From IMG/VR virus record IMGVR_UViG_3300025316_000002, positions 1 through 47,779 of that record: a DNA stretch of 47,779 nt. One strand, written 5' to 3'. The notes below the pieces were generated by a model. It saw only the letters and a list, made by a program, of their open reading frames with translations. It did no database searches and was not told the origin of the DNA. The position numbers and the translations under genes are program-made. Source of the DNA: a virus. Below, one piece after another: positions 1 to 47,779 of the stretch. Numbering within the stretch: the stretch's first letter is position 1; each line of letters begins with the position of its first letter.

Positions 1-127
1 CAACAACCCACTGCTTGCCCATCACGTCCCACGCCACCCACGCGTGCTCCCAATCATGCTCTTCGCCGTACAAGTCAGCGGCTTGCTCGTCCCACATGGG
101 CGCCAGCAGCGGGATAATGCGCCGGTC
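1..127. repeat. Terminal direct repeat copy 1, identical to 47653..47779. This is a circular-assembly overlap.
   Basis: Base-by-base comparison shows the first 127 bases equal the last 127 bases. The repeat cuts through an ORF. Confidence 0.95.
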
Positions 128-1727: not shown

Positions 1728-2501
1728 CTACTCAAATAATACTGTCTGATCTGGGCAATCACGCACCCGCGCCTTGCCGCTAATCCACCACGTAAACCAC
1801 TCCTGACCGTCCACGAAGTCGCATGGCAACCCTGCCGCCTTCCGTTGTTTTACGAGGCGGTCTAACGTGCGAATATATGCCGCCGCGATTTTCGGCCAGC
1901 GTTTTGACTCCTTGCGCTGATCGCTCATCGGGCAACAAACACAGCCAATGCGCTTCCATCCCTCATCATACAGCGGGCAGTATGGCACATTATAGGCGCG
2001 AATAAATTCCCATACGTCGGCGTCTGACCAATCAATGATCGGATGGATTAACACCCGGTTGCTCCCCGCGCGTTGGCAGGATTCCACTGATCGGCGTTTC
2101 GCACGTCTCGCTGATTCCGCACGTCGTACCCCCGTGAGCACAATCCTTCCTTTCCCGCCTTGCTCTTTAAGCACCTTGCAGCAATACCGCTGATAACGTA
2201 GAGGAGGGATTTTTTCCCTTTCGATCATTGCCCACATAGTTTCCACGGGTTTGTGTAGCGTTACGCCAGGAAAAAACTCGCGTACAAACCGGACAAGCTC
2301 CGGCGGGTCAACGCTGGTCAGATTCATATGCGCGTCAAACCGTACCCCAGCCATCTCACACAAGCGATGCACGACCACCGAATCCTTCCCACCGCTAAAT
2401 GCTAGGTGATAGCCGTTGACCGGCTCAAATAGCCGCATAAAGTCGATGGCGAGTTGTACACGGTCAATCGTGCCTTCCGTAGTGATTTCCATGAGTGGCA
2501 T
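1728..2501 (-). CDS. PAPS reductase / PP-loop ATP pyrophosphatase family protein (DndC-like fold)
   Basis: SGGKDS PP-loop (LAFSGGKDSVVV) and a C-terminal Cys cluster (RIGCVCCP). ATG at 2499-2501 with GGGGGACGG upstream and a TAATG overlap with the upstream ORF. Confidence 0.75.
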   Translation of the reverse strand: MPLMEITTEGTIDRVQLAIDFMRLFEPVNGYHLAFSGGKDSVVVHRLCEMAGVRFDAHMNLTSVDPPELVRFVREFFPGVTLHKPVETMWAMIEREKIPPLRYQRYCCKVLKEQGGKGRIVLTGVRRAESARRAKRRSVESCQRAGSNRVLIHPIIDWSDADVWEFIRAYNVPYCPLYDEGWKRIGCVCCPMSDQRKESKRWPKIAAAYIRTLDRLVKQRKAAGLPCDFVDGQEWFTWWISGKARVRDCPDQTVLFE

Positions 2502-2683
2502 TACACCGTCCCCCGTTTCTGCGTCCGTTTCGCAACAATCCGCGCGTTGTCGGCATCTTTCGCCGCGCACCAGTCGTCCCACATTTTGATAGCCGCGTCC
2601 CGCAATCTCGCGTTTGCCAGGATATAGCAGTAATGCGGCAGGAGCTTTTCGACGTTTTCGTCGTGGGTGTCAATATAGGTCAT
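2501..2683 (-). CDS. Hypothetical protein (60 aa)
   Basis: ATG at 2681-2683 with GGAGGC 7 nt upstream. Translationally coupled on both sides (ATGA and TAATG overlaps). Confidence 0.55.
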   Translation of the reverse strand: MTYIDTHDENVEKLLPHYCYILANARLRDAAIKMWDDWCAAKDADNARIVAKRTQKRGTV

Positions 2684-5956: not shown

Positions 5957-6357
5957 AGTAAGCCTCCCTTCGCGTCTACCCATCCGCCTTTGATATACGC
6001 TATCGCCGTTGATATCAGTTTAGGGTTAGTGTAGACAATCGGCTTGTTTTGGCGGTGGAATGCCTCAATCTCCGCCTTGATGCCCACAGACGCTTCCCAT
6101 CCATCCAACGCCAGCACAATGCACCCGTCGCAACACAGGATCATCTCCGCGTTCCACTGCGCCCAATCTTCCCAACTACCGCCGATATCAGGGCACTGAT
6201 CATAGATGCCATGCGAGTGCGCAATCGGGCTAAACACCATGACCCCCGCGCGGATTAATTGGCCGGCGGCCAAGCAGACTTGCGTATACCGCTCCCAGCG
6301 CACAGATGGAGAATAATAGGGCGATGCGAGATACCATAATTTGTTGCCGGTGCTCAT
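5953..6357 (-). CDS. DUF1937-family protein (nucleoside 2-deoxyribosyltransferase-like fold)
   Basis: LWYLASPYYSP...VFSPIAHSH...LDGWEASVGIKAEIE matches the DUF1937 pattern as I remember it. Confidence 0.6.
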   Translation of the reverse strand: MSTGNKLWYLASPYYSPSVRWERYTQVCLAAGQLIRAGVMVFSPIAHSHGIYDQCPDIGGSWEDWAQWNAEMILCCDGCIVLALDGWEASVGIKAEIEAFHRQNKPIVYTNPKLISTAIAYIKGGWVDAKGGLL

Positions 6358-7346
6358 TGTCCATCCTCCCCCGTGATATCGAAGGGCAGCTCTAGTTCCA
6401 GAGCAAAAGGTGCGTCAACCGTTTCCATATTCTTCACAGCCTGTCGATAATACCCGGCTTTCAATTCGATACCGATCCCGCGACGGGCGTGAATCACCGC
6501 GCCATACACTTCTGACCCGACGCCCATGAACGGGGTAAGCACCGTCTCACCTGGGTTACTGCGCATGATCACACACCGCTCAATTACGTCCAATTGCAGT
6601 GGGTGAACGTGCTTTTCATCCTCCTCGTCGCGGGCTTCAATGAAGGGAAGCACATTATCCATGCGGATATCATCCCAAATTGACGACGCATATTGACGCC
6701 AAACCCAATGCGAGTATATATTTTCGATTTGGTTGCCGGTGTACCCGCGATAGCTGAGAAGATTTTGCGGAACATCGCGTTCCCCGATGTATTGGAGCAA
6801 ACCGTTTTCGTGTGTTACTGGTATCGGGTTGTCGCCTTTTTTGCGTAGGATTAACAGGTGATCTGCACCAGCCACGCCACAATTAATTGAGTCCTCGCAG
6901 AGTGCTTTGTGCATGAGGTTTTTCTGCATCGTGCGATTGCGCACCGCCAACGGTTCTTTCCAGATAAAATGTCGGCAGGCCAATTCAAACCCTAATTCCT
7001 CGTGGAGGCGGATGATGTCTCCAGGAAAATCGGTATACGCATCTTTCCCGCTATTGCCCTTCGGTACGTCCATGCAATGTACCGCTGTAATTCTTCCCGG
7101 CAAGGTCAGTCGCGCAATCTGTTCGACCACATAGCGGTACTGTTGGAAAAACATTGCGTAATCGTCACAGTTCGACAAGTCCCGCTCGTGGCTGGAATAG
7201 GTGTAGAGCGCCCCGTTTCCCGTGGCAAACGGCGGAGAGTAGATAGATAGGTGGATGCTTTCATCCGGCAACGTGCGCAAAACTTCCATACAATCTGAGT
7301 TGAAAATCGCGAAACGGTCTGTTATAAGCTGATCGTGGACAGCCAT
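6354..7346 (-). CDS. Beta-class N4/N6 DNA methyltransferase
   Basis: Catalytic SPPF (IYSPPFATG) lies N-terminal to the SAM motif TPFMGVGSEV. GGAGG RBS. ATGA overlap with the downstream gene. Confidence 0.85.
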   Translation of the reverse strand: MAVHDQLITDRFAIFNSDCMEVLRTLPDESIHLSIYSPPFATGNGALYTYSSHERDLSNCDDYAMFFQQYRYVVEQIARLTLPGRITAVHCMDVPKGNSGKDAYTDFPGDIIRLHEELGFELACRHFIWKEPLAVRNRTMQKNLMHKALCEDSINCGVAGADHLLILRKKGDNPIPVTHENGLLQYIGERDVPQNLLSYRGYTGNQIENIYSHWVWRQYASSIWDDIRMDNVLPFIEARDEEDEKHVHPLQLDVIERCVIMRSNPGETVLTPFMGVGSEVYGAVIHARRGIGIELKAGYYRQAVKNMETVDAPFALELELPFDITGEDGQ

Positions 7347-14824: not shown

Positions 14825-14991
14825 GACACGACCCGACGGCCAACACCGCGATAGCCCACATCCTGCGCGACGATCCGCGCCAACGCGCCGACTACCGGCG
14901 ATGGCTGGCGGAGCATCCCAAGGAGTGGCAGGCAGGTGCGCAAACCCGCTACCGCCGCGCCGCCGAACGACTTCAGGTGAGGTTCTCGTGA
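14821..14991 (+). CDS. Small basic hypothetical protein (56 aa); not in the ORF track
   Basis: GAGGT lies 5 nt upstream of the ATG at 14821. The stop overlaps the GTG start of the ParB-MTase gene (GTGA). Confidence 0.4.
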   Translation: MRHDPTANTAIAHILRDDPRQRADYRRWLAEHPKEWQAGAQTRYRRAAERLQVRFS

Positions 14992-16454
14992 AAATCGTGA
15001 CCCGGAAAACAGAAGAGCTTGTCCCGCATCCCGCAAATTACCGTGTGCACCCACCGGCGCAGATTGCCGCCCTGGCCGATTCCCTGCGATTCCATGCCCA
15101 ACCAAAGCCCATCGTTATCTCTGTGGATAATGTGATTTTAGCGGGGCATGGGCTGGTCGAAGCGGCGAAGCTCGCGGGATTGCAAACGCTGGAATGCTCG
15201 ATCTACGAGGGGGAATCTCCCGAGGCATTTATTATTGCTGATAATCGCACGGCGGAAATGGCGGAAAATGACCCGTCAAAGCTCGCAGACTTATTACAGG
15301 AGTTAGATAACGGCGGATTCGACATGGCCGCCACAGCGTTTGCAACAGACGAAATCGCGGCACTCATGCACGGACTTGATGAGGCAAGCGGAGATAAAAC
15401 ACTCGCGGCCTTGGCCGCCGCTGATCCTGACATGCCGGAATCTCTGCCCGCGCGGGCGACGCTTGGCGACACCTGGCAACTCGGACGGCATACCCTCAAC
15501 GTGCGCGACTGTCGCACCGTGGCGATACCTGCGGGCTGTGATACACTGGTCTTCGACCCACCGTTCCAGTGGGATTACGTGTACGAGTGGATTCCCGATG
15601 CGCAGGACGGTATGGCCCTCCTCGTATTTTCGGACGCGTTCCGCCTCGCGGAAGCCATCCTCGCGGCAACAGACCGCGGATGGACGTTCCAGTCAGAGTT
15701 TGTTTGGGATGGACTTACCTCGTGGTATACTCCCACCCGTCCTCTCGCGCGGCATAAAGTCGCGCTGGTATTTAGCGCGCGGAAGTGGGACTTTGACGCG
15801 GCATTATACACAGCGGAAAATGACGCGCGGCACGAATCAACGGTCAATAACGCAAACGGCGAATACCACTACGTTCCGGACCCACGCGGCAAACACCTCA
15901 CTACAGTTTTTCCGTTTGCGAATACCCGCGTCGAAAATGACCACGCGCACGCTAAACCCGCTGAATGGGTACGCGCGCTCCTGCGGGGCATGGGCGCTCA
16001 ACGAATATTTGATATGTGCGCCGGCAGCGGGACAATAACCTGCGTGGCGGAAAATGAGGGGTGGAACGTCACCTCCTGCGAAATTGACCCCGCGACGGCA
16101 GATATTCTCCTCGCGCGCTGGGAAACACACACCGGGTTACAGGCAGTGTGCATCGCGCAGGAGACTATTACCGAGAGTGTTGCGAAATCCGTTCCGGACC
16201 CCAACCGCTATGCGCGCAGTAAATTCTATCGGTCAAAAGTGTGGCGCGACTTGCGCAATGAGGCAGTCGCTCGCGACAATCACCGGTGCGTATTGTGCGG
16301 GGTGAAGTGCGCGAAGGACGCAATCCACGTCGATCATATTCAGGAGCGGAACGACGGAGGCGCAGATGCCTTGGAAAACCTCCAAAGTCTTTGCACCTCC
16401 TGCCACTCCCAGAAAACCGGCGCTAAACGCAAAACGGGCGCAAGTCCTCCTTGA
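14988..16454 (+). CDS. ParB-like nuclease domain / beta-class DNA methyltransferase / HNH endonuclease fusion protein
   Basis: GTG at 14988 with AGGTGAGG upstream. N-terminal ParB/Srx motifs (LVPHPANYRVHP, ILAGHGLVEAAKLAG), DPPF (LVFDPPFQW) before FDMCAGSGT, and a C-terminal HNH (CVLCG...HVDHIQERNDGG...NLQSLCTSCH). Confidence 0.8.
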   Translation: MKIVTRKTEELVPHPANYRVHPPAQIAALADSLRFHAQPKPIVISVDNVILAGHGLVEAAKLAGLQTLECSIYEGESPEAFIIADNRTAEMAENDPSKLADLLQELDNGGFDMAATAFATDEIAALMHGLDEASGDKTLAALAAADPDMPESLPARATLGDTWQLGRHTLNVRDCRTVAIPAGCDTLVFDPPFQWDYVYEWIPDAQDGMALLVFSDAFRLAEAILAATDRGWTFQSEFVWDGLTSWYTPTRPLARHKVALVFSARKWDFDAALYTAENDARHESTVNNANGEYHYVPDPRGKHLTTVFPFANTRVENDHAHAKPAEWVRALLRGMGAQRIFDMCAGSGTITCVAENEGWNVTSCEIDPATADILLARWETHTGLQAVCIAQETITESVAKSVPDPNRYARSKFYRSKVWRDLRNEAVARDNHRCVLCGVKCAKDAIHVDHIQERNDGGADALENLQSLCTSCHSQKTGAKRKTGASPP

Positions 16455-23836: not shown

Positions 23837-24355
23837 ATGCCTGGGAAAACCATCGGCGTAAGCCTCAACAACGGCTTCGCGGGCACCTATGCCCAACAGC
23901 CGGACTCCATTATCAACACCGCGCAGTTGGCCGTTGGCTCTGCTGCCGTGAACTTTGGCGCGGCCCTGATGATGGGCGCTGGCGGGACCGTCACTGCCGT
24001 TAACAATACCTGCACGGTCGGCAAAGTCGCTGGCGTAGCGGGTGCGCAAATTCAGACAGCCACGACCTACGCGAGCCAGGATGCTGGCAGCAGCTATGTT
24101 GCCGGCGATGCCTGTAGCGTGGTCGAGCGCGGCGCGGTGAGCGTCCTGTGCAAACGTGGGACACCGGAGCGATTCGGCGGGGTCTTCCTCCGCATCACCG
24201 CTAACGGCAGTTTTCCCGGTACGTTCGTCGGTGGCTTCGAAACCACAGCGGACGCCGGCAACACCATCGACATTTCGAGCATTGCCCAATGGGCGGGTGC
24301 GAAAGATGCGAACGACGTGGCGACCCTGGTCTTTTTGACCCGGAACGCGGCTTAA
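23837..24355 (+). CDS. Putative head decoration / cement protein
   Basis: 172 aa Gly/Ala-rich beta-type protein between the scaffold and major capsid genes. Called from position and composition. Confidence 0.45.
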   Translation: MPGKTIGVSLNNGFAGTYAQQPDSIINTAQLAVGSAAVNFGAALMMGAGGTVTAVNNTCTVGKVAGVAGAQIQTATTYASQDAGSSYVAGDACSVVERGAVSVLCKRGTPERFGGVFLRITANGSFPGTFVGGFETTADAGNTIDISSIAQWAGAKDANDVATLVFLTRNAA

Positions 24356-24365
24356 GGAGGCCAGC

Positions 24366-25388
24366 ATGAAACGTGTCACTGATGAGGGCTTTATCAGCCC
24401 GATCCTGACCATGGATAGCGGTATGGGCGGCGACATGCGCATGACCGATGCCGCGATTGCCAACGGGCAGGCGTTTCTTATCTCCGAATTGGAGAAGCGC
24501 GACCCGCTGATTCGCCAACCCCTCACCTCCGTTACCTGGGCGCGTGACGTCCCGGTCAACGTTGGCGGCGGCTGGGTGGAATTTGAGACCGCGCTGAATA
24601 TCGACTACGGCGACGGCGGAAGCGGCGACAACTCCGTAACTGCCGCCGGTTCCAATGTCGTGAGCATGGCGCAGTCTAACCTCGACAAGGACATTTGGCC
24701 GGCCCACGTGTACAGCAAGGGCCTGCGTATCCCGATCATCGCCCAACTGCGGCAACAGATCGCTGGGCGCTCCCTCGATCAGATGCTTACCGACGGCGTG
24801 CGCCTGTCCTATGACAAGCACATGGACCAGAACGTGTACCTGGGCGTCTACGGGCGCACCGGCCTGCTCAATGACGCGGGTGTCAGCCGTTCCACCGTTG
24901 CCCCGTCCGCTGGCTCCGCCTCGTCAACCCGTTGGATCAACAAAACGCCGGACGAAATCCTGTACGACGTGAACAAGGCGATTGAGTTGACCTGGGCTGG
25001 CGCGGGCTACGACCGTGAAGCCATCCCGAACCACCTGCTTATTGATTATGCGAATTTCGCATATATCATCGGGCAGAAAGTCAGCACAGCGGGCAATGTC
25101 AGCATCCTGCAATTCCTGCGCGAGAACAATATCGCCAAGGAAAACGGCGGGGAACTGTTCATCGGAGCAACCCGCTTCAACGCCACTGCCGCGTTAGACG
25201 GTGGCGCACGCATGGCCGTCTATGTCCATGCCCCGCGCTTCCTCGAAGTGTCGGAACTCGCGCCGCTCAATCGCATGATGACGGCCCCGAACCCGACGTT
25301 TGCCGCATACGACAGTTTATATCAGGCCAACGTTGGCGCGCTCAAACTGTTCTACCTCACCACCCTGACGTACTGGGATGGCATTTAG
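24366..25388 (+). CDS. Major capsid protein (DUF2184-like, HK97 fold expected)
   Basis: 340 aa, downstream of scaffold and cement genes, followed by a strong terminator hairpin. GGAGG RBS. Confidence 0.7.
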   Translation: MKRVTDEGFISPILTMDSGMGGDMRMTDAAIANGQAFLISELEKRDPLIRQPLTSVTWARDVPVNVGGGWVEFETALNIDYGDGGSGDNSVTAAGSNVVSMAQSNLDKDIWPAHVYSKGLRIPIIAQLRQQIAGRSLDQMLTDGVRLSYDKHMDQNVYLGVYGRTGLLNDAGVSRSTVAPSAGSASSTRWINKTPDEILYDVNKAIELTWAGAGYDREAIPNHLLIDYANFAYIIGQKVSTAGNVSILQFLRENNIAKENGGELFIGATRFNATAALDGGARMAVYVHAPRFLEVSELAPLNRMMTAPNPTFAAYDSLYQANVGALKLFYLTTLTYWDGI

Positions 25389-25405
25389 GGCGAACACCTA
25401 CGCAC

Positions 25406-25443
25406 GGGAGGGGACACGGATGGCCCCTCCCAATTCCTTTTCG
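25406..25443 (+). terminator. Intrinsic terminator after the major capsid gene
   Basis: GGGAGGGG (25406-25413), 10-nt loop, CCCCTCCC (25424-25431), followed by AATTCCTTTTCG. Confidence 0.65.
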
Positions 25444-25460
25444 CTATATGAGGTGAGCAT

Positions 25461-26420
25461 ATGGCCTACACCATCGTCTGCTATTCCGACGGCCCGCCAG
25501 AATGCCAACTATTTTCCAAAGGGCTTGTCCCCGGTTTACAGGATGCCGGTTGCCGCGCGCACTTTTGCGAACCGTTGCAAGGTGCGGCGCTTCGTACCTT
25601 CATTGACCGAGCGCACCCCGACTTTATCTGCTTTCTCGGAGTTTGGTTGCCGCGCTATGACGAGCTGGTTGCCGTCGCGCGGGAAAAGGGGATTGGTCTA
25701 ATCTGGTGGGGCACGGAAGACCCGCCGGCGTTCGATTTGACCCTCACAACATGCGCGCGTGTCGCCGATATCATCCTCTCTCCGGCAATTGAATGTGTCG
25801 AACAGTACCGCGCCGCCGGGAAGCGCGCCGGACTCTTCCCCTTCGCGGCCAATCCGCGCTGGCATAAACCCGTCACGCCGCGCGCGGAATATCAGCTTGA
25901 TTTTATCGGCGCGTGCTCGTATTATCCGGGGCATGATTGCCGCCAACACGGGATGCGGTCGATTATTCAACCGGCGATTGACTCCCCGTATACCGGATTT
26001 ATCAGCGGCAACTATTGGGACCGGGCGGGTGCCGAACAGTATTTCACCTCGCGGGATATTCGGCGGCCCTGGTTGCCGGCCACGGAGATGCCTGCCGTCT
26101 ATTCATCGGCAAAGGTACTCCTTGGCGTCCAGTGCGACGATTCCAGCATGACGCAGACCTCCATGCGGCCCTATGAGGTACTCGCGTGCGGGGGATTCCT
26201 CCTCACGCAGTGGACGCCAGCGACGGCAGACCTTTTTCGTGACGGGGTGCATGTGGTCATGAGTAGCACGGCGGAACAAACCCGCGAGCTGCTGGATTAC
26301 TACCTCGCACACCCCGGCGAACGCCAGAAAATCGCCAAACAGGGAAAGGCGTTTGTCCTGGCGAATCATACCTATGAGCGCCGGGTGCGGGACGTTCTCC
26401 TGCCCCTGTTGCGCAATTAG
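25461..26420 (+). CDS. CgeB-like glycosyltransferase (GT-B, Glyco_trans_1_2 type C-terminus)
   Basis: The C-terminal SMRPYEVLACGGFLLTQW...LLDYYLAHPGERQKIAKQGKAFVLANHTYERRVRDVL closely follows the CgeB/DUF3880 family pattern. Confidence 0.7.
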   Translation: MAYTIVCYSDGPPECQLFSKGLVPGLQDAGCRAHFCEPLQGAALRTFIDRAHPDFICFLGVWLPRYDELVAVAREKGIGLIWWGTEDPPAFDLTLTTCARVADIILSPAIECVEQYRAAGKRAGLFPFAANPRWHKPVTPRAEYQLDFIGACSYYPGHDCRQHGMRSIIQPAIDSPYTGFISGNYWDRAGAEQYFTSRDIRRPWLPATEMPAVYSSAKVLLGVQCDDSSMTQTSMRPYEVLACGGFLLTQWTPATADLFRDGVHVVMSSTAEQTRELLDYYLAHPGERQKIAKQGKAFVLANHTYERRVRDVLLPLLRN

Positions 26421-26440
26421 ATCGAGGGTGAGGGTGAGCG

Positions 26441-27229
26441 ATGAAGATCAAAACGCACTGGTTTCGGCATACGCCGAACTTCGGCGACCAGTTGACGCCG
26501 CTGCTGCTGAACCATTTCGGCTATGAAGCGGAATGGGCGGAAATCTCCGACGCGGAGCTGCTCTGCATCGGTAGTTACCTAGAGCACGTCCCGGAGGACT
26601 ATTCGGGCGTGATTCTGGGCACCGGCTGCATATCGTACCGGACCGAAAAGCGCTTCCCGCGAGCAGAGATTCTCGCGGTGCGCGGGCCGTTGACGGAACG
26701 GGCGCTCGGGTTATCTGACACTGTCTGGGGTGATCCTGGTTTATTGGCCGAATCGCTGGTTTGCCAGCGGGGAGAAAAAGCGTATGTGATCGGGTTCCTC
26801 CCGCACTACGCCGACAAGGACAACGCCGCCATTCGAGCTATCGTTGACGCGAACCCGGATGATTGCTGCATCATCGACGTTCAACACGACCCTATCAATG
26901 TGCTCTACGCCATTAACGCGTGTGAGTGCGTATTGTCATCGTCGCTGCACGGGTTGATTGCCGCTGAATCGCTCGGTATCCCGTCGCGCTGGATTTATGC
27001 ACCGGGATTACAGGGGGGGCGCTTCAAATTTGACGATTACTTCGAAAGCGCCGATTACAGCGAGGATACCCCGGTTGTTTTGTACGGCGAGGAGACGGTA
27101 GACGAATTGCACTCGCTCGCTGAATTGGCGCTATTTAATTCGCAACGTCATAACATCAAAAAGGAATTGCGCTCACAGTTTGAGCGCATTGGCGACTTAA
27201 TCGAAGAACGCCGTGGGGGTGGGCTATGA
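26441..27229 (+). CDS. Polysaccharide pyruvyl transferase (ExoV/CsaB-like)
   Basis: N-terminal HTPNFGDQLTPLLL and C-terminal VLSSSLHGLIAAESLGIP motifs of the PS_pyruv_trans family. GAGGGTGAGGGTGAG RBS region. Confidence 0.7.
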   Translation: MKIKTHWFRHTPNFGDQLTPLLLNHFGYEAEWAEISDAELLCIGSYLEHVPEDYSGVILGTGCISYRTEKRFPRAEILAVRGPLTERALGLSDTVWGDPGLLAESLVCQRGEKAYVIGFLPHYADKDNAAIRAIVDANPDDCCIIDVQHDPINVLYAINACECVLSSSLHGLIAAESLGIPSRWIYAPGLQGGRFKFDDYFESADYSEDTPVVLYGEETVDELHSLAELALFNSQRHNIKKELRSQFERIGDLIEERRGGGL

Positions 27230-28092
27230 CCGCGCCGGCGTATACGATTTGCCTGCCGTATCGCGCCGAATCGCCGGAACGCCGCGCTATATTTCACTGG
27301 ACGTATGCCCGCTGGCGGGCCTTATGCCCGGATGCGGAGATTGTGACCGGCGGCGATGATTGCACCGGAACCCCGAACCGCGCGAAGATGCGTAATGCGT
27401 GTGTGGCGAAGGCATCCACCGATACCCTCCTGATTTTCGATTGTGATTGCTTCCTCGATGACGCGCAACAGGTGCAGGAAATCCTCGCATTGATTCCCCG
27501 CGCGGGCGTCGTGCAGTATGATTCTCTGCGCTTGTTCAACGGCCCGGATGATACTGATGCTGTGCTGGCACAACACCCGGCGCGCACCATCGCCCTACCA
27601 TCATTCAAACTGTACAACCGTTTCCCCGGCCTGCTCTACGGCGTCACGCGGCAAGCGTGGCTGGCTGTCGGCGGCTGCGATGAGCGGTTTACCGGGTGGG
27701 GATTCGAAGACACGGCGCTACAAAAGGCGTTGACGACGATTGTCGGCCCGCGTCTCACTATCTCCGCGCCGGCCAATCACCTTTGGCACCCGCACACCGA
27801 CCCGCACGAAATGGCGACGGGAAACCGCGACCTCTACGCGCGGTATGAAGCGGCGAACGGCAACCGGGACGCGATGCTGCACGTGGTACAGGTTGACCCG
27901 CGCCGGGTCAGTGTTCCGGCATTTAAGGATAAAATCTATACCAGTTCCCAGGCGTTCCGCTTCTGGAAAGCGGGTGCTGATATCTTTGTGATGCCGCAAG
28001 GGTTTCATGGCCCTGTCCCTAGCTGGGTACAGGCGCAGGACTATTTCAGCGTGGCGATGCGCGCCGGGATTATCTGTGAGGTAACGGAATGA
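27226..28092 (+). CDS. GT-A fold glycosyltransferase (beta-1,4-galactosyltransferase-like C-terminal motif)
   Basis: LLIFDCDCFLDD (DxD-like) and FTGWGFEDTAL (GWGxED as in Glyco_transf_7C). ATGA overlaps at both ends. Confidence 0.6.
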   Translation: MTAPAYTICLPYRAESPERRAIFHWTYARWRALCPDAEIVTGGDDCTGTPNRAKMRNACVAKASTDTLLIFDCDCFLDDAQQVQEILALIPRAGVVQYDSLRLFNGPDDTDAVLAQHPARTIALPSFKLYNRFPGLLYGVTRQAWLAVGGCDERFTGWGFEDTALQKALTTIVGPRLTISAPANHLWHPHTDPHEMATGNRDLYARYEAANGNRDAMLHVVQVDPRRVSVPAFKDKIYTSSQAFRFWKAGADIFVMPQGFHGPVPSWVQAQDYFSVAMRAGIICEVTE

Positions 28093-28571
28093 CGATGGAC
28101 GTTCAAAGCACGATTGCCGCCGCGTCAAATGTGATTGATGATGCCAACGGAACGGCGTATACCGAAACAATGTTCAAAGCCGACTTCCCGCAATTCTACA
28201 ACGGCGCTACCGGCATTGTCCCCTCCGGTATTCTCGCCACGTTTATTGGCATGGCCAACGCCACGGTACTGCAAGCGCGCTATCTGGATGCCTGGCGTTA
28301 TGCCGCCGGCCTCTATACCGCGCACTATGCCACACAATACCTGCAGGCCTATGCCGCCAATAACACCAGCGCCGCACAAGTTGTCGGTAGCGCCGGGCCG
28401 GCGGGACTCCTCACACAGAACGATATCAAGGAAACGATCTCTACACAGTTCTCCTATTCAGAACTGTTAGAGGCTACGGCGAAGTGGGGCGGCCTGAATG
28501 CCACGCATTACGGGCGCTGTCTGGTCGATATTGCGCGACTGGTTGGGGCGGGCGGGTCATTCGTGATTTAG
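28089..28571 (+). CDS. Head-tail connector / head completion protein (DUF4054-like)
   Basis: FKADFPQFYN...LDAWRYAAGLYTAHYATQYL resembles DUF4054. Position fits. Confidence 0.5.
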   Translation: MTMDVQSTIAAASNVIDDANGTAYTETMFKADFPQFYNGATGIVPSGILATFIGMANATVLQARYLDAWRYAAGLYTAHYATQYLQAYAANNTSAAQVVGSAGPAGLLTQNDIKETISTQFSYSELLEATAKWGGLNATHYGRCLVDIARLVGAGGSFVI

Positions 28572-28934: not shown

Positions 28935-29324
28935 ATGGGCCTCACGATCGACACGAAAACGATTAGCTCGAAGCTCGACCGGATGCGAAAACTCCTCCCC
29001 GAAGTGCGCCGCGCGATATTGCAAAAGACGACACTGGTGGTGAGTGAAGAAGAAATGAAAATCACTCCCAAAGATCATGGCGATTTGCGAAAACGACTAT
29101 ATGCTCGCCTCAACGAACAAGGCACCGCCGTCGTAACCGGAACCGCCGGGTGTGCCTATGCCGCCGCCGTGCATGAGCGTCTACTCTCCAAATCCGGCAA
29201 CGCGATACAGTACACAGTCCCCGGTACCGGTCCGAAATTTATTGAACGGGCCATACGCGGAAAAGGCGCAGCATATCTTCTTAAGGCGATTCGGCAGGAA
29301 GTGTTGAAAGGCATCACGAAATGA
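28935..29324 (+). CDS. HK97 gp10-like neck / tail completion protein
   Basis: ATG at 28935 with GGAG upstream. ...KLLPEVRRAILQKTTLVVSEEEMKITPKDHGDLRKRL resembles the HK97 gp10 family pattern (P.DTG.L). Confidence 0.55.
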   Translation: MGLTIDTKTISSKLDRMRKLLPEVRRAILQKTTLVVSEEEMKITPKDHGDLRKRLYARLNEQGTAVVTGTAGCAYAAAVHERLLSKSGNAIQYTVPGTGPKFIERAIRGKGAAYLLKAIRQEVLKGITK

Positions 29325-30142
29325 GGCAGGCCGCTAAATTAGCGATATGTTCCCCGATAAAGAATCGCGCCTGGTGCTTGCCCTACTATTTGGAGTGCAT
29401 CCTCGCGCTAGAATATCCGAAAACGCGCACCGCGCTCTTTTTCGCCGATGATGGCAGTACCGACGGGGGCGCGGAGATGCTGGAAGAATGGGCGGCGCGT
29501 CACCGGTCAGAATACGCCGGGATTGACATAACCCATGTCACCCCGATACGCAATAACACCTCCTCACGGGATGCGGGTATCTACCACCGCGACGTATACC
29601 GGCACATCGGCGACATGCGCAACCTGCTACGCGGACAAGCGCGGGTATGGGGCGCTAACGCCCTGTTTACTGTGGACTCTGATACGCTTTTTGCCCCGGA
29701 TATCGTCACGGCGCTTCTGGCGCATAAAGTGCCGCTGGTCAGTAGCATCAATTACGTCGATTGCGTCTATAAGGGTTCGCTGGGATGCGACCCGCCGGAA
29801 CAGCGGCGCTATATCAATGCCGGGTATTTCACCCCGCAGGGCGAGCACCGCGCCTATCGTGAGTATGACCTCAACGCGCTGCTTCCCATCCAGATCACCG
29901 CCGGAACCTACCTGATGGACAAGGCGACGCTCAACAGCGCCGCGACGTATGAGGCGAACCTCACGAACAGCGAACAGGGAGAGGATGTGGGCTTCTGTCT
30001 GCACCTGGAGCGCCTGGGCATTCCGCGCTTTATAGATACGACCGTGCGCAGTGTCCACATCATGGAAGAGGGCTTCCTGCCCGCCGCCGTGCGCGCCGCG
30101 CGCCGCCTATGGCATGCGCACTTCGATATCTGCGCCTACTGA
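29321..30142 (+). CDS. GT2-family (GT-A) glycosyltransferase
   Basis: FFADDGSTDGGAEML (the DDGSTD nucleotide-sugar motif) and TVDSDTLF (DxD). ATGA overlap with the preceding neck gene. Confidence 0.65.
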   Translation: MRQAAKLAICSPIKNRAWCLPYYLECILALEYPKTRTALFFADDGSTDGGAEMLEEWAARHRSEYAGIDITHVTPIRNNTSSRDAGIYHRDVYRHIGDMRNLLRGQARVWGANALFTVDSDTLFAPDIVTALLAHKVPLVSSINYVDCVYKGSLGCDPPEQRRYINAGYFTPQGEHRAYREYDLNALLPIQITAGTYLMDKATLNSAATYEANLTNSEQGEDVGFCLHLERLGIPRFIDTTVRSVHIMEEGFLPAAVRAARRLWHAHFDICAY

Positions 30143-47435: not shown

Positions 47436-47779
47436 TCCCCCTCACTGTCGGGGTTATACACATCTAGCAAGTCGTATACCAGATGCCGTTCTGTTGTTGT
47501 GGTGATCATGCGTGGCAACGTATCCAGCACGGCTGCATCCCAGTCATTATCAGCGAGCGACGTGTCGCACTCGTCATATCCATAACCCGACGAGTCGCCG
47601 AACCCATCGCCGCCGAAGCCCGTGGTAAAGGCGCTGCCGCACGCAGGGCACGCAACAACCCACTGCTTGCCCATCACGTCCCACGCCACCCACGCGTGCT
47701 CCCAATCATGCTCTTCGCCGTACAAGTCAGCGGCTTGCTCGTCCCACATGGGCGCCAGCAGCGGGATAATGCGCCGGTC
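47432..47779 (-). CDS. C-terminal part of the junction-spanning hypothetical gene (see 1..217). The last 127 nt of the window duplicate 1..127.
   Basis: The ORF is open to the window edge and in frame with the ATG at 217 across the repeat. Contains CPACG and a Gly/Asp/Tyr-rich tract. Confidence 0.65.
   Translation of the reverse strand, partial: DRRIIPLLAPMWDEQAADLYGEEHDWEHAWVAWDVMGKQWVVACPACGSAFTTGFGGDGFGDSSGYGYDECDTSLADNDWDAAVLDTLPRMITTTTERHLVYDLLDVYNPDSEGE
47653..47779. repeat. Terminal direct repeat copy 2 (identical to 1..127)
   Basis: Exact identity checked by eye over all 127 bases. Confidence 0.95.

Follow-up and report, generated by a model that had tools for sequence, protein, structure and literature searches.

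Glycosylation of virions by phage-encoded enzymes has so far been demonstrated only in actinobacteriophages. In the mycobacteriophages Che8 and Corndog, capsid and tail-tube proteins are glycosylated by the phages' own operons (Freeman 2023, as summarised in PMC12363180 and PMC12619734), and in Corndog a methyltransferase and three glycosyltransferases (GTs) occupy the head module, directly upstream of the capsid gene. In Bacillus subtilis, the 317-aa CgeB is reported to glycosylate Thr112 of the hexameric crust protein CgeA in the mother-cell cytoplasm (PMC13577073); CgeD and the sps genes belong to the same system. Here we analyse a four-enzyme cassette in IMG/VR virus record IMGVR_UViG_3300025316_000002 (positions 1 to 47,779; this whole stretch is referred to as the window). 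A CgeB-like GT of the GT-B fold, a polysaccharide pyruvyl transferase and a GT-A enzyme (GTA1) form a contiguous set between the genes for the major capsid protein (MCP) and the head-to-tail adaptor, and a second GT-A enzyme (GTA2) follows further downstream. On the strength of gene identities, folds, solubility, synteny and homologies, we infer, with moderate confidence, that the cassette is a phage-encoded cytoplasmic pathway for virion glycosylation, most likely of the head surface.

The mycobacteriophage operons (Che8 gp108-110, Corndog gp35-38 and that of Myrna) and the window have in common a cluster of soluble phage GTs with a sugar-modifying enzyme, and here, as in Che8 and Corndog, the cluster adjoins or is co-expressed with virion genes. 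The enzymes themselves differ. The Che8 and Corndog operons lack a CgeB-like GT-B, the candidate primer of the window, and the capping enzyme is a methyltransferase in Corndog and a pyruvyl transferase here. The methyltransferase-bearing Corndog cluster beside the capsid gene is matched in this respect by two sister cassettes (loci L094 and L095, see below), which likewise have a methyltransferase. The glycosylated mycobacteriophage proteins are modified at their C-termini, whereas no C-terminal acceptor extension is seen on the MCP of the window. The spore crust offers a further parallel: there, as in the system proposed here, a multimeric protein shell is glycosylated in the cytoplasm without lipid carrier or flippase, the acceptor being a crust protein in B. 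subtilis and presumably a capsid protein in the window. Phage virion glycosylation is already known; new here are the family of the primer, the probable Bacillota host, the head-protein-derived domain with a putative targeting role, and the pyruvyl transferase.

Enzymes of the cassette and their place in the head operon

The three contiguous enzymes had been recognised in an original prediction made from the nucleotide sequence. Their open reading frames (ORFs) and enzyme classes were correctly called, all three proteins scoring above the Pfam gathering thresholds, and the motifs quoted are all found in the translations; the fourth enzyme, GTA2, had been overlooked. The GT-B, which contains SMRPYEVLACGGFLLTQW, matches PF13524 (Glyco_trans_1_2, YkvP/CgeB family) with an E-value of 1.9e-28 and 99.7 bits against a cut-off of 25. 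Glyco_trans_1_2, PS_pyruv_trans and Glyco_transf_7C were thus found as anticipated, but the expected DUF3880 (YkvP_N, PF12996) has no match in the window GT-B, although it is present in many homologues, including that of phage P0123. AlphaFold2 models were made for the GT-B and the pyruvyl transferase, and this check, too, bore out the assignments, giving confident models with structural matches of GT-B type. The GT-B model (pLDDT, predicted local distance difference test, 95.7) is a compact GT4-type structure with two Rossmann domains and a C-terminal helical tail, whose Foldseek neighbours include BshA and MshA (~1e-10) and Gtf3/GtfC (~1e-9); Gtf3/GtfC glycosylate serine-rich adhesins. B. 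subtilis CgeB can be likened to it by family, size and layout, with the same PF13524 domain, 317 against 319 aa, and the same order of N-domain, C-domain and helical tail. The phage GT-Bs are monophyletic, that of the window grouping with P0122-P0124, and they share at most 43% identity with cellular proteins. We propose that the GT-B is a priming protein O-glycosyltransferase.

The pyruvyl transferase matches PF04230 (PS_pyruv_trans) with an E-value of 2.3e-10 and 41.3 bits against a cut-off of 25.3. It has 1203 homologues, and PF04230 is present in all 120 among the matches listed. Both NFGDQL, near the N-terminus, and SSSLHGLIAAESLGIP are present in the translation. The NxGD and SSSLHG motifs are invariant in the family, and the invariant residues include N13, G15, D16, R81, H122, S167, S168, L169, H170 and K196; R81, H122, H170 and K196 are invariant in 44 homologues and may include counterparts of R148, H308 and K328 of CsaB. 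PF04230, the N-terminal NxGD, the SSSLHG histidine motif and a GT-B-like fold (model pLDDT 94.9) are shared with the ketal-pyruvyl transferases CsaB, Pvg1p and the EpsO/WcaK type. The window enzyme differs from CsaB, Pvg1p and the exopolysaccharide (EPS) enzymes in being shorter (262 aa), in its score as a CsaB equivalog (TIGR03609, 17.7 bits against a cut-off of 213.1) and in its position in a virus head operon. Against NCBIfam, none of the four enzymes matched an equivalog. The structural match of the model to yeast Pvg1p (5ax7; E-value 1.8e-3, probability 1.00, TM (template modelling) score 0.46) is weak, other GT-B-like folds scoring alike, and a PDB sequence search with the pyruvyl transferase profile returned nothing useful. 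The Pvg1p system illustrates that protein-linked glycans can be pyruvylated (PMC4872226), and a 2019 review of pyruvylated glycoconjugates includes none from viruses or spores.

GTA1 carries PF02709 (Glyco_transf_7C; E-value 1e-5, 25.5 bits against a cut-off of 23), matches phrog_1721 'galactosyl transferase' at 7.5e-12, and contains both FDCDC and GWGFEDTAL. By BLASTP it is homologous to Che8 gp109 and Corndog gp37 (E-value 2e-11, 25-28% identity over 156-190 aa), and it is also homologous to Tunturi_5 gp301 and to the GT of locus L090. An exhaustive HMMER search of 1.8 billion representatives yielded 2203 relatives, mostly only 220-240 aa in length.

The C-terminus of GTA1 ties the enzyme to the head module. 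In relatives that lack the cassette, the gap between the MCP and adaptor genes holds only a small gene of ~90 codons (phrog_29824), the product of which has a conserved domain of ~50 residues followed by a charged tail; small post-MCP genes of this kind sit in L003-L082. When a hidden Markov model (HMM) of 57 small post-capsid proteins was run against the six-frame translation of the window, the only match was to the last ~40 residues of GTA1 (E-value 7e-5; next 5.9). The same HMM matches the C-termini of GTA1-like GTs in L094 and L095, with no match in Che8 gp109, Corndog gp37, Tunturi_5 gp301 or the L090 GT, and hhalign aligned seven GT C-termini with the small proteins over 49 columns (probability 97.3%, E-value 2.7e-11). 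The module is present in 7 of the best 150 GTA1 relatives, and the module-bearing GTs with known context are encoded directly before the DUF4054 adaptor gene or inside the head-neck block. A stand-alone copy of the small protein is absent from all six frames of the window, no in-frame Shine-Dalgarno (SD) sequence with a start codon occurs inside the C-terminal stretch of GTA1, and a PDB sequence search with the small-protein profile gave nothing useful. Judged by this homology, the C-terminus of GTA1 is a putative docking module, which would tether the GT to the small protein's binding partner in head assembly.

GTA2 is an Anp1/GT2-like GT-A enzyme (PF00535 at 6e-5, Anp1 at 1.5e-3). A full-length homologue at a distance of 1-3 kb from a CgeB-like gene was found at 25 of 53 Bacillota loci and at 30 of 93 loci from metagenomes or IMG/VR. 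The ERZ1426629 contig, a longer one of the phage with the L094, L152 and L163 type of cassette (see below), encodes a 250-aa Anp1-like GT at a neck-to-tail position similar to that of GTA2; genes of 174 and 160 aa follow it, which is also the case in the window.

The cassette is closely knit into the late genes (Table 1), which also include a DUF2213 protease/scaffold gene among those flanking it. ATGA overlaps link the pyruvyl transferase to GTA1 (27226), GTA1 to the adaptor (28089) and a Neck1-like gene to GTA2 (29321), and an SD-like sequence stands ahead of each cassette gene. The first two overlaps had been noted before and are real, and the translational coupling to structural genes that was deduced from them follows from the ORF coordinates. 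The hairpin reported after the capsid gene was likewise recovered: GGGAGGGG...CCCCTCCC spans 25406-25432 with a stem of 8+2 bp and is followed by the U-rich tail AAUUCCUUUUCG, the 81-nt fold having a z-score of -2.5. It is a possible leaky terminator, and no promoter-like site was found in 25389-25460, between the MCP gene and the cassette. G+C content, G+C content at third codon positions and codon usage of the cassette match those of the structural genes, so that recent horizontal acquisition finds no support in composition.

Table 1. Features of the cassette and its immediate surroundings in the window
Feature	Coordinates	Strand	Length	Details
Cement/decoration protein, E217 gp24 type	23837-24355	+		PF22758, E 1.3e-15; candidate acceptor
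Major capsid protein (MCP)	24366-25388	+		PF09950, E 3.7e-49; candidate acceptor
G+C-rich hairpin with U-rich tail	25406-25443	+		Between MCP stop and cassette; possible leaky terminator
CgeB-like GT-B glycosyltransferase	25461-26420	+	319 aa	
Polysaccharide pyruvyl transferase	26441-27229	+	262 aa	
GTA1 (GT-A)	27226-28092	+	288 aa	
GTA1 catalytic region	27226-27969	+		GT-A fold, DXD-type FDCDC, Glyco_transf_7C motif
GTA1 C-terminal module (residues 249-284)	27970-28092	+		Homologous to conserved N-domain of phrog_29824 small protein
Head-to-tail adaptor, DUF4054 / E217 gp27 family	28089-28571	+		PF13262, E 2.2e-11
GTA2 (fourth enzyme, GT-A)	29321-30142	+	273 aa	Upstream of major tail protein gene

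An exact 127-bp direct repeat at the two ends of the window (1-127 and 47653-47779) indicates that it is a complete circular assembly of a genome of ~47.65 kb, so that statements of absence for the whole genome are meaningful. Pfam and PHROG scans took in ~45 ORFs, all but a few small ones of this genome. Among them there was no Pfam match to a flippase, polymerase (Wzx/Wzy) or priming transferase, in agreement with the original prediction, and no nucleotide-sugar enzyme was found. No multi-pass membrane protein was found among these ORFs, hydrophobic segments numbering at most two in each, and none of the four enzymes has a membrane segment.

Distribution of the cassette among phage head modules

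The MCP is 45-50% identical to that of 80 IMG/VR phages, which share the cement and adaptor genes too. The four enzyme genes were sought in these phages and found in none of them (0/80), which rules out the cassette as a core component of the capsid lineage; they are also absent from the Agathobaculum phages, the closest cultured relatives (40% MCP identity). In a search of 5.8 billion proteins, the closest relatives of the GT-B share 54-56% identity with it, and every one of them belongs to a phage head module that has the same capsid kit. Five metagenomic loci with a GT-B of at least 54% identity all have the DUF2213 protease, cement protein, PF09950 MCP, DUF4054 adaptor and a GTA1-like GT. 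Three layouts were seen besides that of the window. At L094, L152 and L163 the adaptor is followed by GT-B, a SAM (S-adenosylmethionine) methyltransferase and a GTA1-like GT, and L150 and L151 have the same order without the methyltransferase. At L095, a myovirus, GT-B, Methyltransf_21 and a GTA1-like GT come ahead of the protease, cement, MCP, small gene and adaptor, which are followed by a second GTA1-like GT. The slot of the pyruvyl transferase is therefore filled by a methyltransferase, or by nothing, in the sister cassettes.

Over 93 further loci, GT-B identity is bimodal, at 54-56%, always with capsid genes, or at 40% or less. The phage GT-Bs are 55-65% conserved against 33-41% for the accompanying MCPs, and the MCP of the window is closer to those of cassette-less phages. 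The higher conservation of the GT-B implies either transfer of the cassette from one head module to another or strong constraint on it, and on both readings its place is the head module. Taken with its absence from the 80 relatives, the three different positions in head modules identify it as a mobile accessory module, albeit one that lies within the head genes and is transcribed together with them. The original prediction had seen an integral part of the operon and not a detachable moron, a view that these data do not support.

A pyruvyl transferase occurs in 19 of 50,697 phage records, and the three neighbourhoods examined are not head operons, which is in keeping with the earlier suggestion that a ketal-pyruvyl transferase in such an operon is without precedent. 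The next-best relative of the window enzyme in the 5.8 billion proteins has 49% identity, and an IMG/VR pattern scan for close relatives found none. Some unrelated phages also pair a pyruvyl transferase with a GTA1-like GT, there amid replication or nucleotide-metabolism genes. At L090 (7024-9549) the order is DUF4406/DUF6378 protein, pyruvyl transferase, GTA1-like GT, and in Tunturi_5 (gp300/gp301; L002, 5971-7709) it adjoins a GT and a DNA methyltransferase. Cobetia phage Carin-5 (L243, 5938-6783) has the pyruvyl transferase without a GT, and genes for a dNMP kinase and a nucleotide nucleosidase are close by. Such settings could mean that the DNA of those phages bears pyruvylated glycans.

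Six Paenibacillus loci (L143-L148) look like parts of large (pro)phages. At L145 (6153-14917, Paenibacillus barcinonensis), the one analysed in detail, an Anp1-like GT and two CgeB-like GTs have virion structural genes on one side and a tape-measure-like gene on the other. We ruled out a cellular origin of the Paenibacillus GT-B loci from their PHROG matches, which show large (pro)phage virion modules; in the phage collection the Paenibacillus GT-B had no cultured phage match. These (pro)phages are a second, distant case of the association of GTs with virion genes. A tyrosine recombinase gene lies in between in the GT region of L145; L143-L148 and L154-L161 also appear to belong to this group of (pro)phages.

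In species-representative genomes, relatives of the GT-B belong nearly all to endospore-forming Bacillota. One of them adjoins SipL, a clostridial spore-coat morphogenetic protein, and in Thermincola the GT-B relative is preceded by a GTA2-like GT, with nucleotide-sugar genes after it. The host is probably a member of the Bacillota rather than an actinobacterium; no prophage relative of the window was found in GTDB representatives. At the bacterial loci L097 (3875-11235) and L098 (5750-14857), which hold cellular GT-B homologues of 41% identity, two CgeB-like GTs are accompanied by an FAD oxidoreductase, a UDP-GlcNAc 2-epimerase and a pair of pyruvyl transferases, and no flippase was seen; the product may be a spore-surface glycan or a cell-wall polymer.

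Proposed pathway and alternative explanations

In the pathway that we favour, the head operon would be transcribed late, and the hairpin after the MCP gene may cut read-through, which would give less enzyme than capsid protein. By analogy with the action of CgeB on the CgeA hexamer, the GT-B may use a host UDP-sugar to attach the first sugar to exposed Ser/Thr residues of assembled MCP hexamers or of the trimeric cement protein. GTA1 and GTA2 would lengthen the glycan, with GTA1 possibly held at the site of head assembly by the C-terminal module that it shares with the small head-module protein. The pyruvyl transferase would then cap a sugar of the glycan with a pyruvate ketal from phosphoenolpyruvate, making the glycan anionic, and the likely benefit would be a hydrophilic, charged coat, which would make the particles more stable or shield them. 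The cement protein is a candidate acceptor because it protrudes from the surface: E217 gp24 is a trimeric beta-tulip protrusion on the capsid, and E217 gp27 is the head-to-tail adaptor (PMC10329688).

The original prediction had named virion proteins as the obvious candidate acceptor. This is better supported now, because several phage lineages have the GT-B/GT-A core linked to their head modules and because there is homology, through GTA1, to mycobacteriophage glycosylation genes. Several observations pull the other way. Alignments of cassette-bearing with cassette-less phages revealed no cassette-specific insertion, Ser/Thr-rich loop or C-terminal extension in MCP or cement, so that an acceptor signature is missing from both proteins. 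BLASTP detected no homologue (none better than E 0.35) of Che8 gp110 and Corndog gp38, GTs that have been called essential, and the activity of CgeB on CgeA is itself weak and preliminary (PMC13577073). A pyruvyl transferase at the head-operon position has been seen in one genome only; in 2 of the 19 phage records that have one, and in a 50-kb metagenomic phage contig, it lies among replication and nucleotide-metabolism genes, with no head operon. The remaining points concern the cellular relatives of the enzymes and lead directly to an alternative.

The enzymes might instead remodel the host envelope, taking as substrates the intermediates of a secondary cell-wall polymer, capsule or EPS that are lipid-linked and exposed on the cytoplasmic side; the changed, pyruvylated surface would mask receptors on infected cells and debris or ease release. 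The nearest homologues of the pyruvyl transferase (40-50% identity) are indeed found in EPS clusters of the Wzx/Wzy type, alongside genes for Wzy, Polysacc_synt and Poly_export, and the enzymes of such clusters act on repeat units linked to a lipid. Some cellular GT-B homologues (41% identity) stand beside a UDP-GlcNAc 2-epimerase gene (Epimerase_2) and two PS_pyruv_trans genes, an arrangement that also fits cell-wall polymer synthesis and resembles the MnaA/CsaB signature for synthesis of the ligand of S-layer homology (SLH) domains; CsaB-type enzymes act on lipid-PP-linked disaccharides (PMC10435577). Against this, the four enzymes are soluble, the genome has neither priming transferase nor flippase, and the coupling to head and neck genes in a late operon would leave little time for a new surface polymer. 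The GT-B/GT-A core has been kept in head modules over several phage lineages, GTA1 bears a domain of a head-module protein, and the pyruvyl transferase scores far below the CsaB equivalog level (17.7 bits against 213), so that we consider envelope remodelling unlikely. Serotype-converting GTs of the GtrABC type resemble the cassette in being phage-borne, accessory and variable between related phages. They are membrane proteins encoded near the attachment site and expressed in lysogens, whereas the window enzymes are soluble and coupled to late head and neck genes.

DNA is another conceivable acceptor, the GTs and the pyruvyl transferase then placing a pyruvylated glycan on a modified phage base as protection from restriction. 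The phage DNA GTs (T4 AGT/BGT and the DNA-glycan GTs of Pyle et al. 2024) are, like those of the window, soluble and use host nucleotide sugars, and phage GTs are described as building diverse glycans on DNA (Pyle 2024, as cited in PMC12619734). The replication-region setting of the pyruvyl transferases in L090, Carin-5 and Tunturi_5 also speaks for it. The window differs in having its genes in the head-neck block, away from the replication arm, and in lacking a modified-base pathway, with no dCMP/dUMP hydroxymethylase, thymidylate-synthase-like protein, TET/JBP dioxygenase, dNMP kinase or hm-base synthase among the scanned ORFs. The only DNA-modifying genes seen are two for N6/N4 methylases and one PAPS-reductase-like gene, and GT-Bs of this clade accompany capsid genes; DNA hypermodification is very improbable on this evidence. 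We give hardly any credence to spore-surface conversion, in which the phage of an endospore former would supply the CgeB-like GT and its partner GTs to alter spore-crust glycans, as do phage-linked spore polysaccharide genes. It would accord with the endospore-forming Bacillota that hold almost all genomic relatives of the GT-B, with the one beside SipL, with the crust role of CgeB (PMC13577073), and with a metagenomic study that read viral CgeB as a spore-surface auxiliary metabolic gene (PMC13317609). Yet the cassette lacks its own promoter and is coupled to late structural genes, an integrase or lysogeny module is not recognised, and late lytic expression is incompatible with finishing sporulation; the conserved head-module position and the putative docking module derived from a head protein would also be left unexplained.

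Virion glycosylation, the reading that we prefer, can be joined to the spore-crust parallel in a wider scenario, which we offer tentatively as a possibility. Phages of endospore-forming Bacillota may have co-opted a spore-surface protein-glycosylation kit (CgeB-like GT-B and Anp1-like GT-A) for their own capsids, in a cassette that moves between head modules with swappable caps, methyl in most and pyruvate here, and one of whose GTs would be brought to the assembling head by a docking domain that arose by duplication from a small head-module protein. The window would then hold the first virus-built pyruvylated protein glycan, which might mimic the SLH-bound pyruvylated cell-wall epitope and so allow reversible binding of virions to S-layer hosts.

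The cassette and its relatives indicate that virion glycosylation extends to unrelated phages, probably of anaerobic Bacillota, with a different priming enzyme. Phage capsid decoration would be linked in this way to spore-crust glycosylation, each sugar-coating a self-assembling protein shell in the cytoplasm. The exchange of methyl for pyruvate amounts to a natural experiment on how capping chemistry affects particle charge, stability, immune and mucus interactions, and adsorption, and a GT that carries a domain from a head protein points to a general route for targeting enzymes to assembling virions. Such cassettes could serve in the engineering of glycan-shielded or charged therapeutic phages, and they supply a soluble pyruvyl transferase whose acceptor is probably a protein-linked glycan.

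Other features of the genome and of related loci

The Pfam and PHROG scans identified DnaB, ERF, Gam, SNF2 and RuvC among the replication and recombination genes, together with genes for terminase, portal, a MuF-like protein, tape measure protein and an M15 peptidase lysin. No integrase or lysogeny module was recognised in these scans, so that the phage may be virulent or may have a lysogeny module of a kind that escapes recognition; the genome has no tRNA genes or Rfam matches. Two N6/N4 DNA methylases, one of them HNH-fused, and the PAPS-reductase-like gene lie at 14901-16454, 6354-7346 (- strand) and 1728-2582 (- strand). At L163 (12487-14765), two ORFs that follow the cassette share the repeated linker motif DGGPGSGDFGHAGRPGEVGGS, resembling the linkers of multi-domain 'polyvalent' phage proteins.

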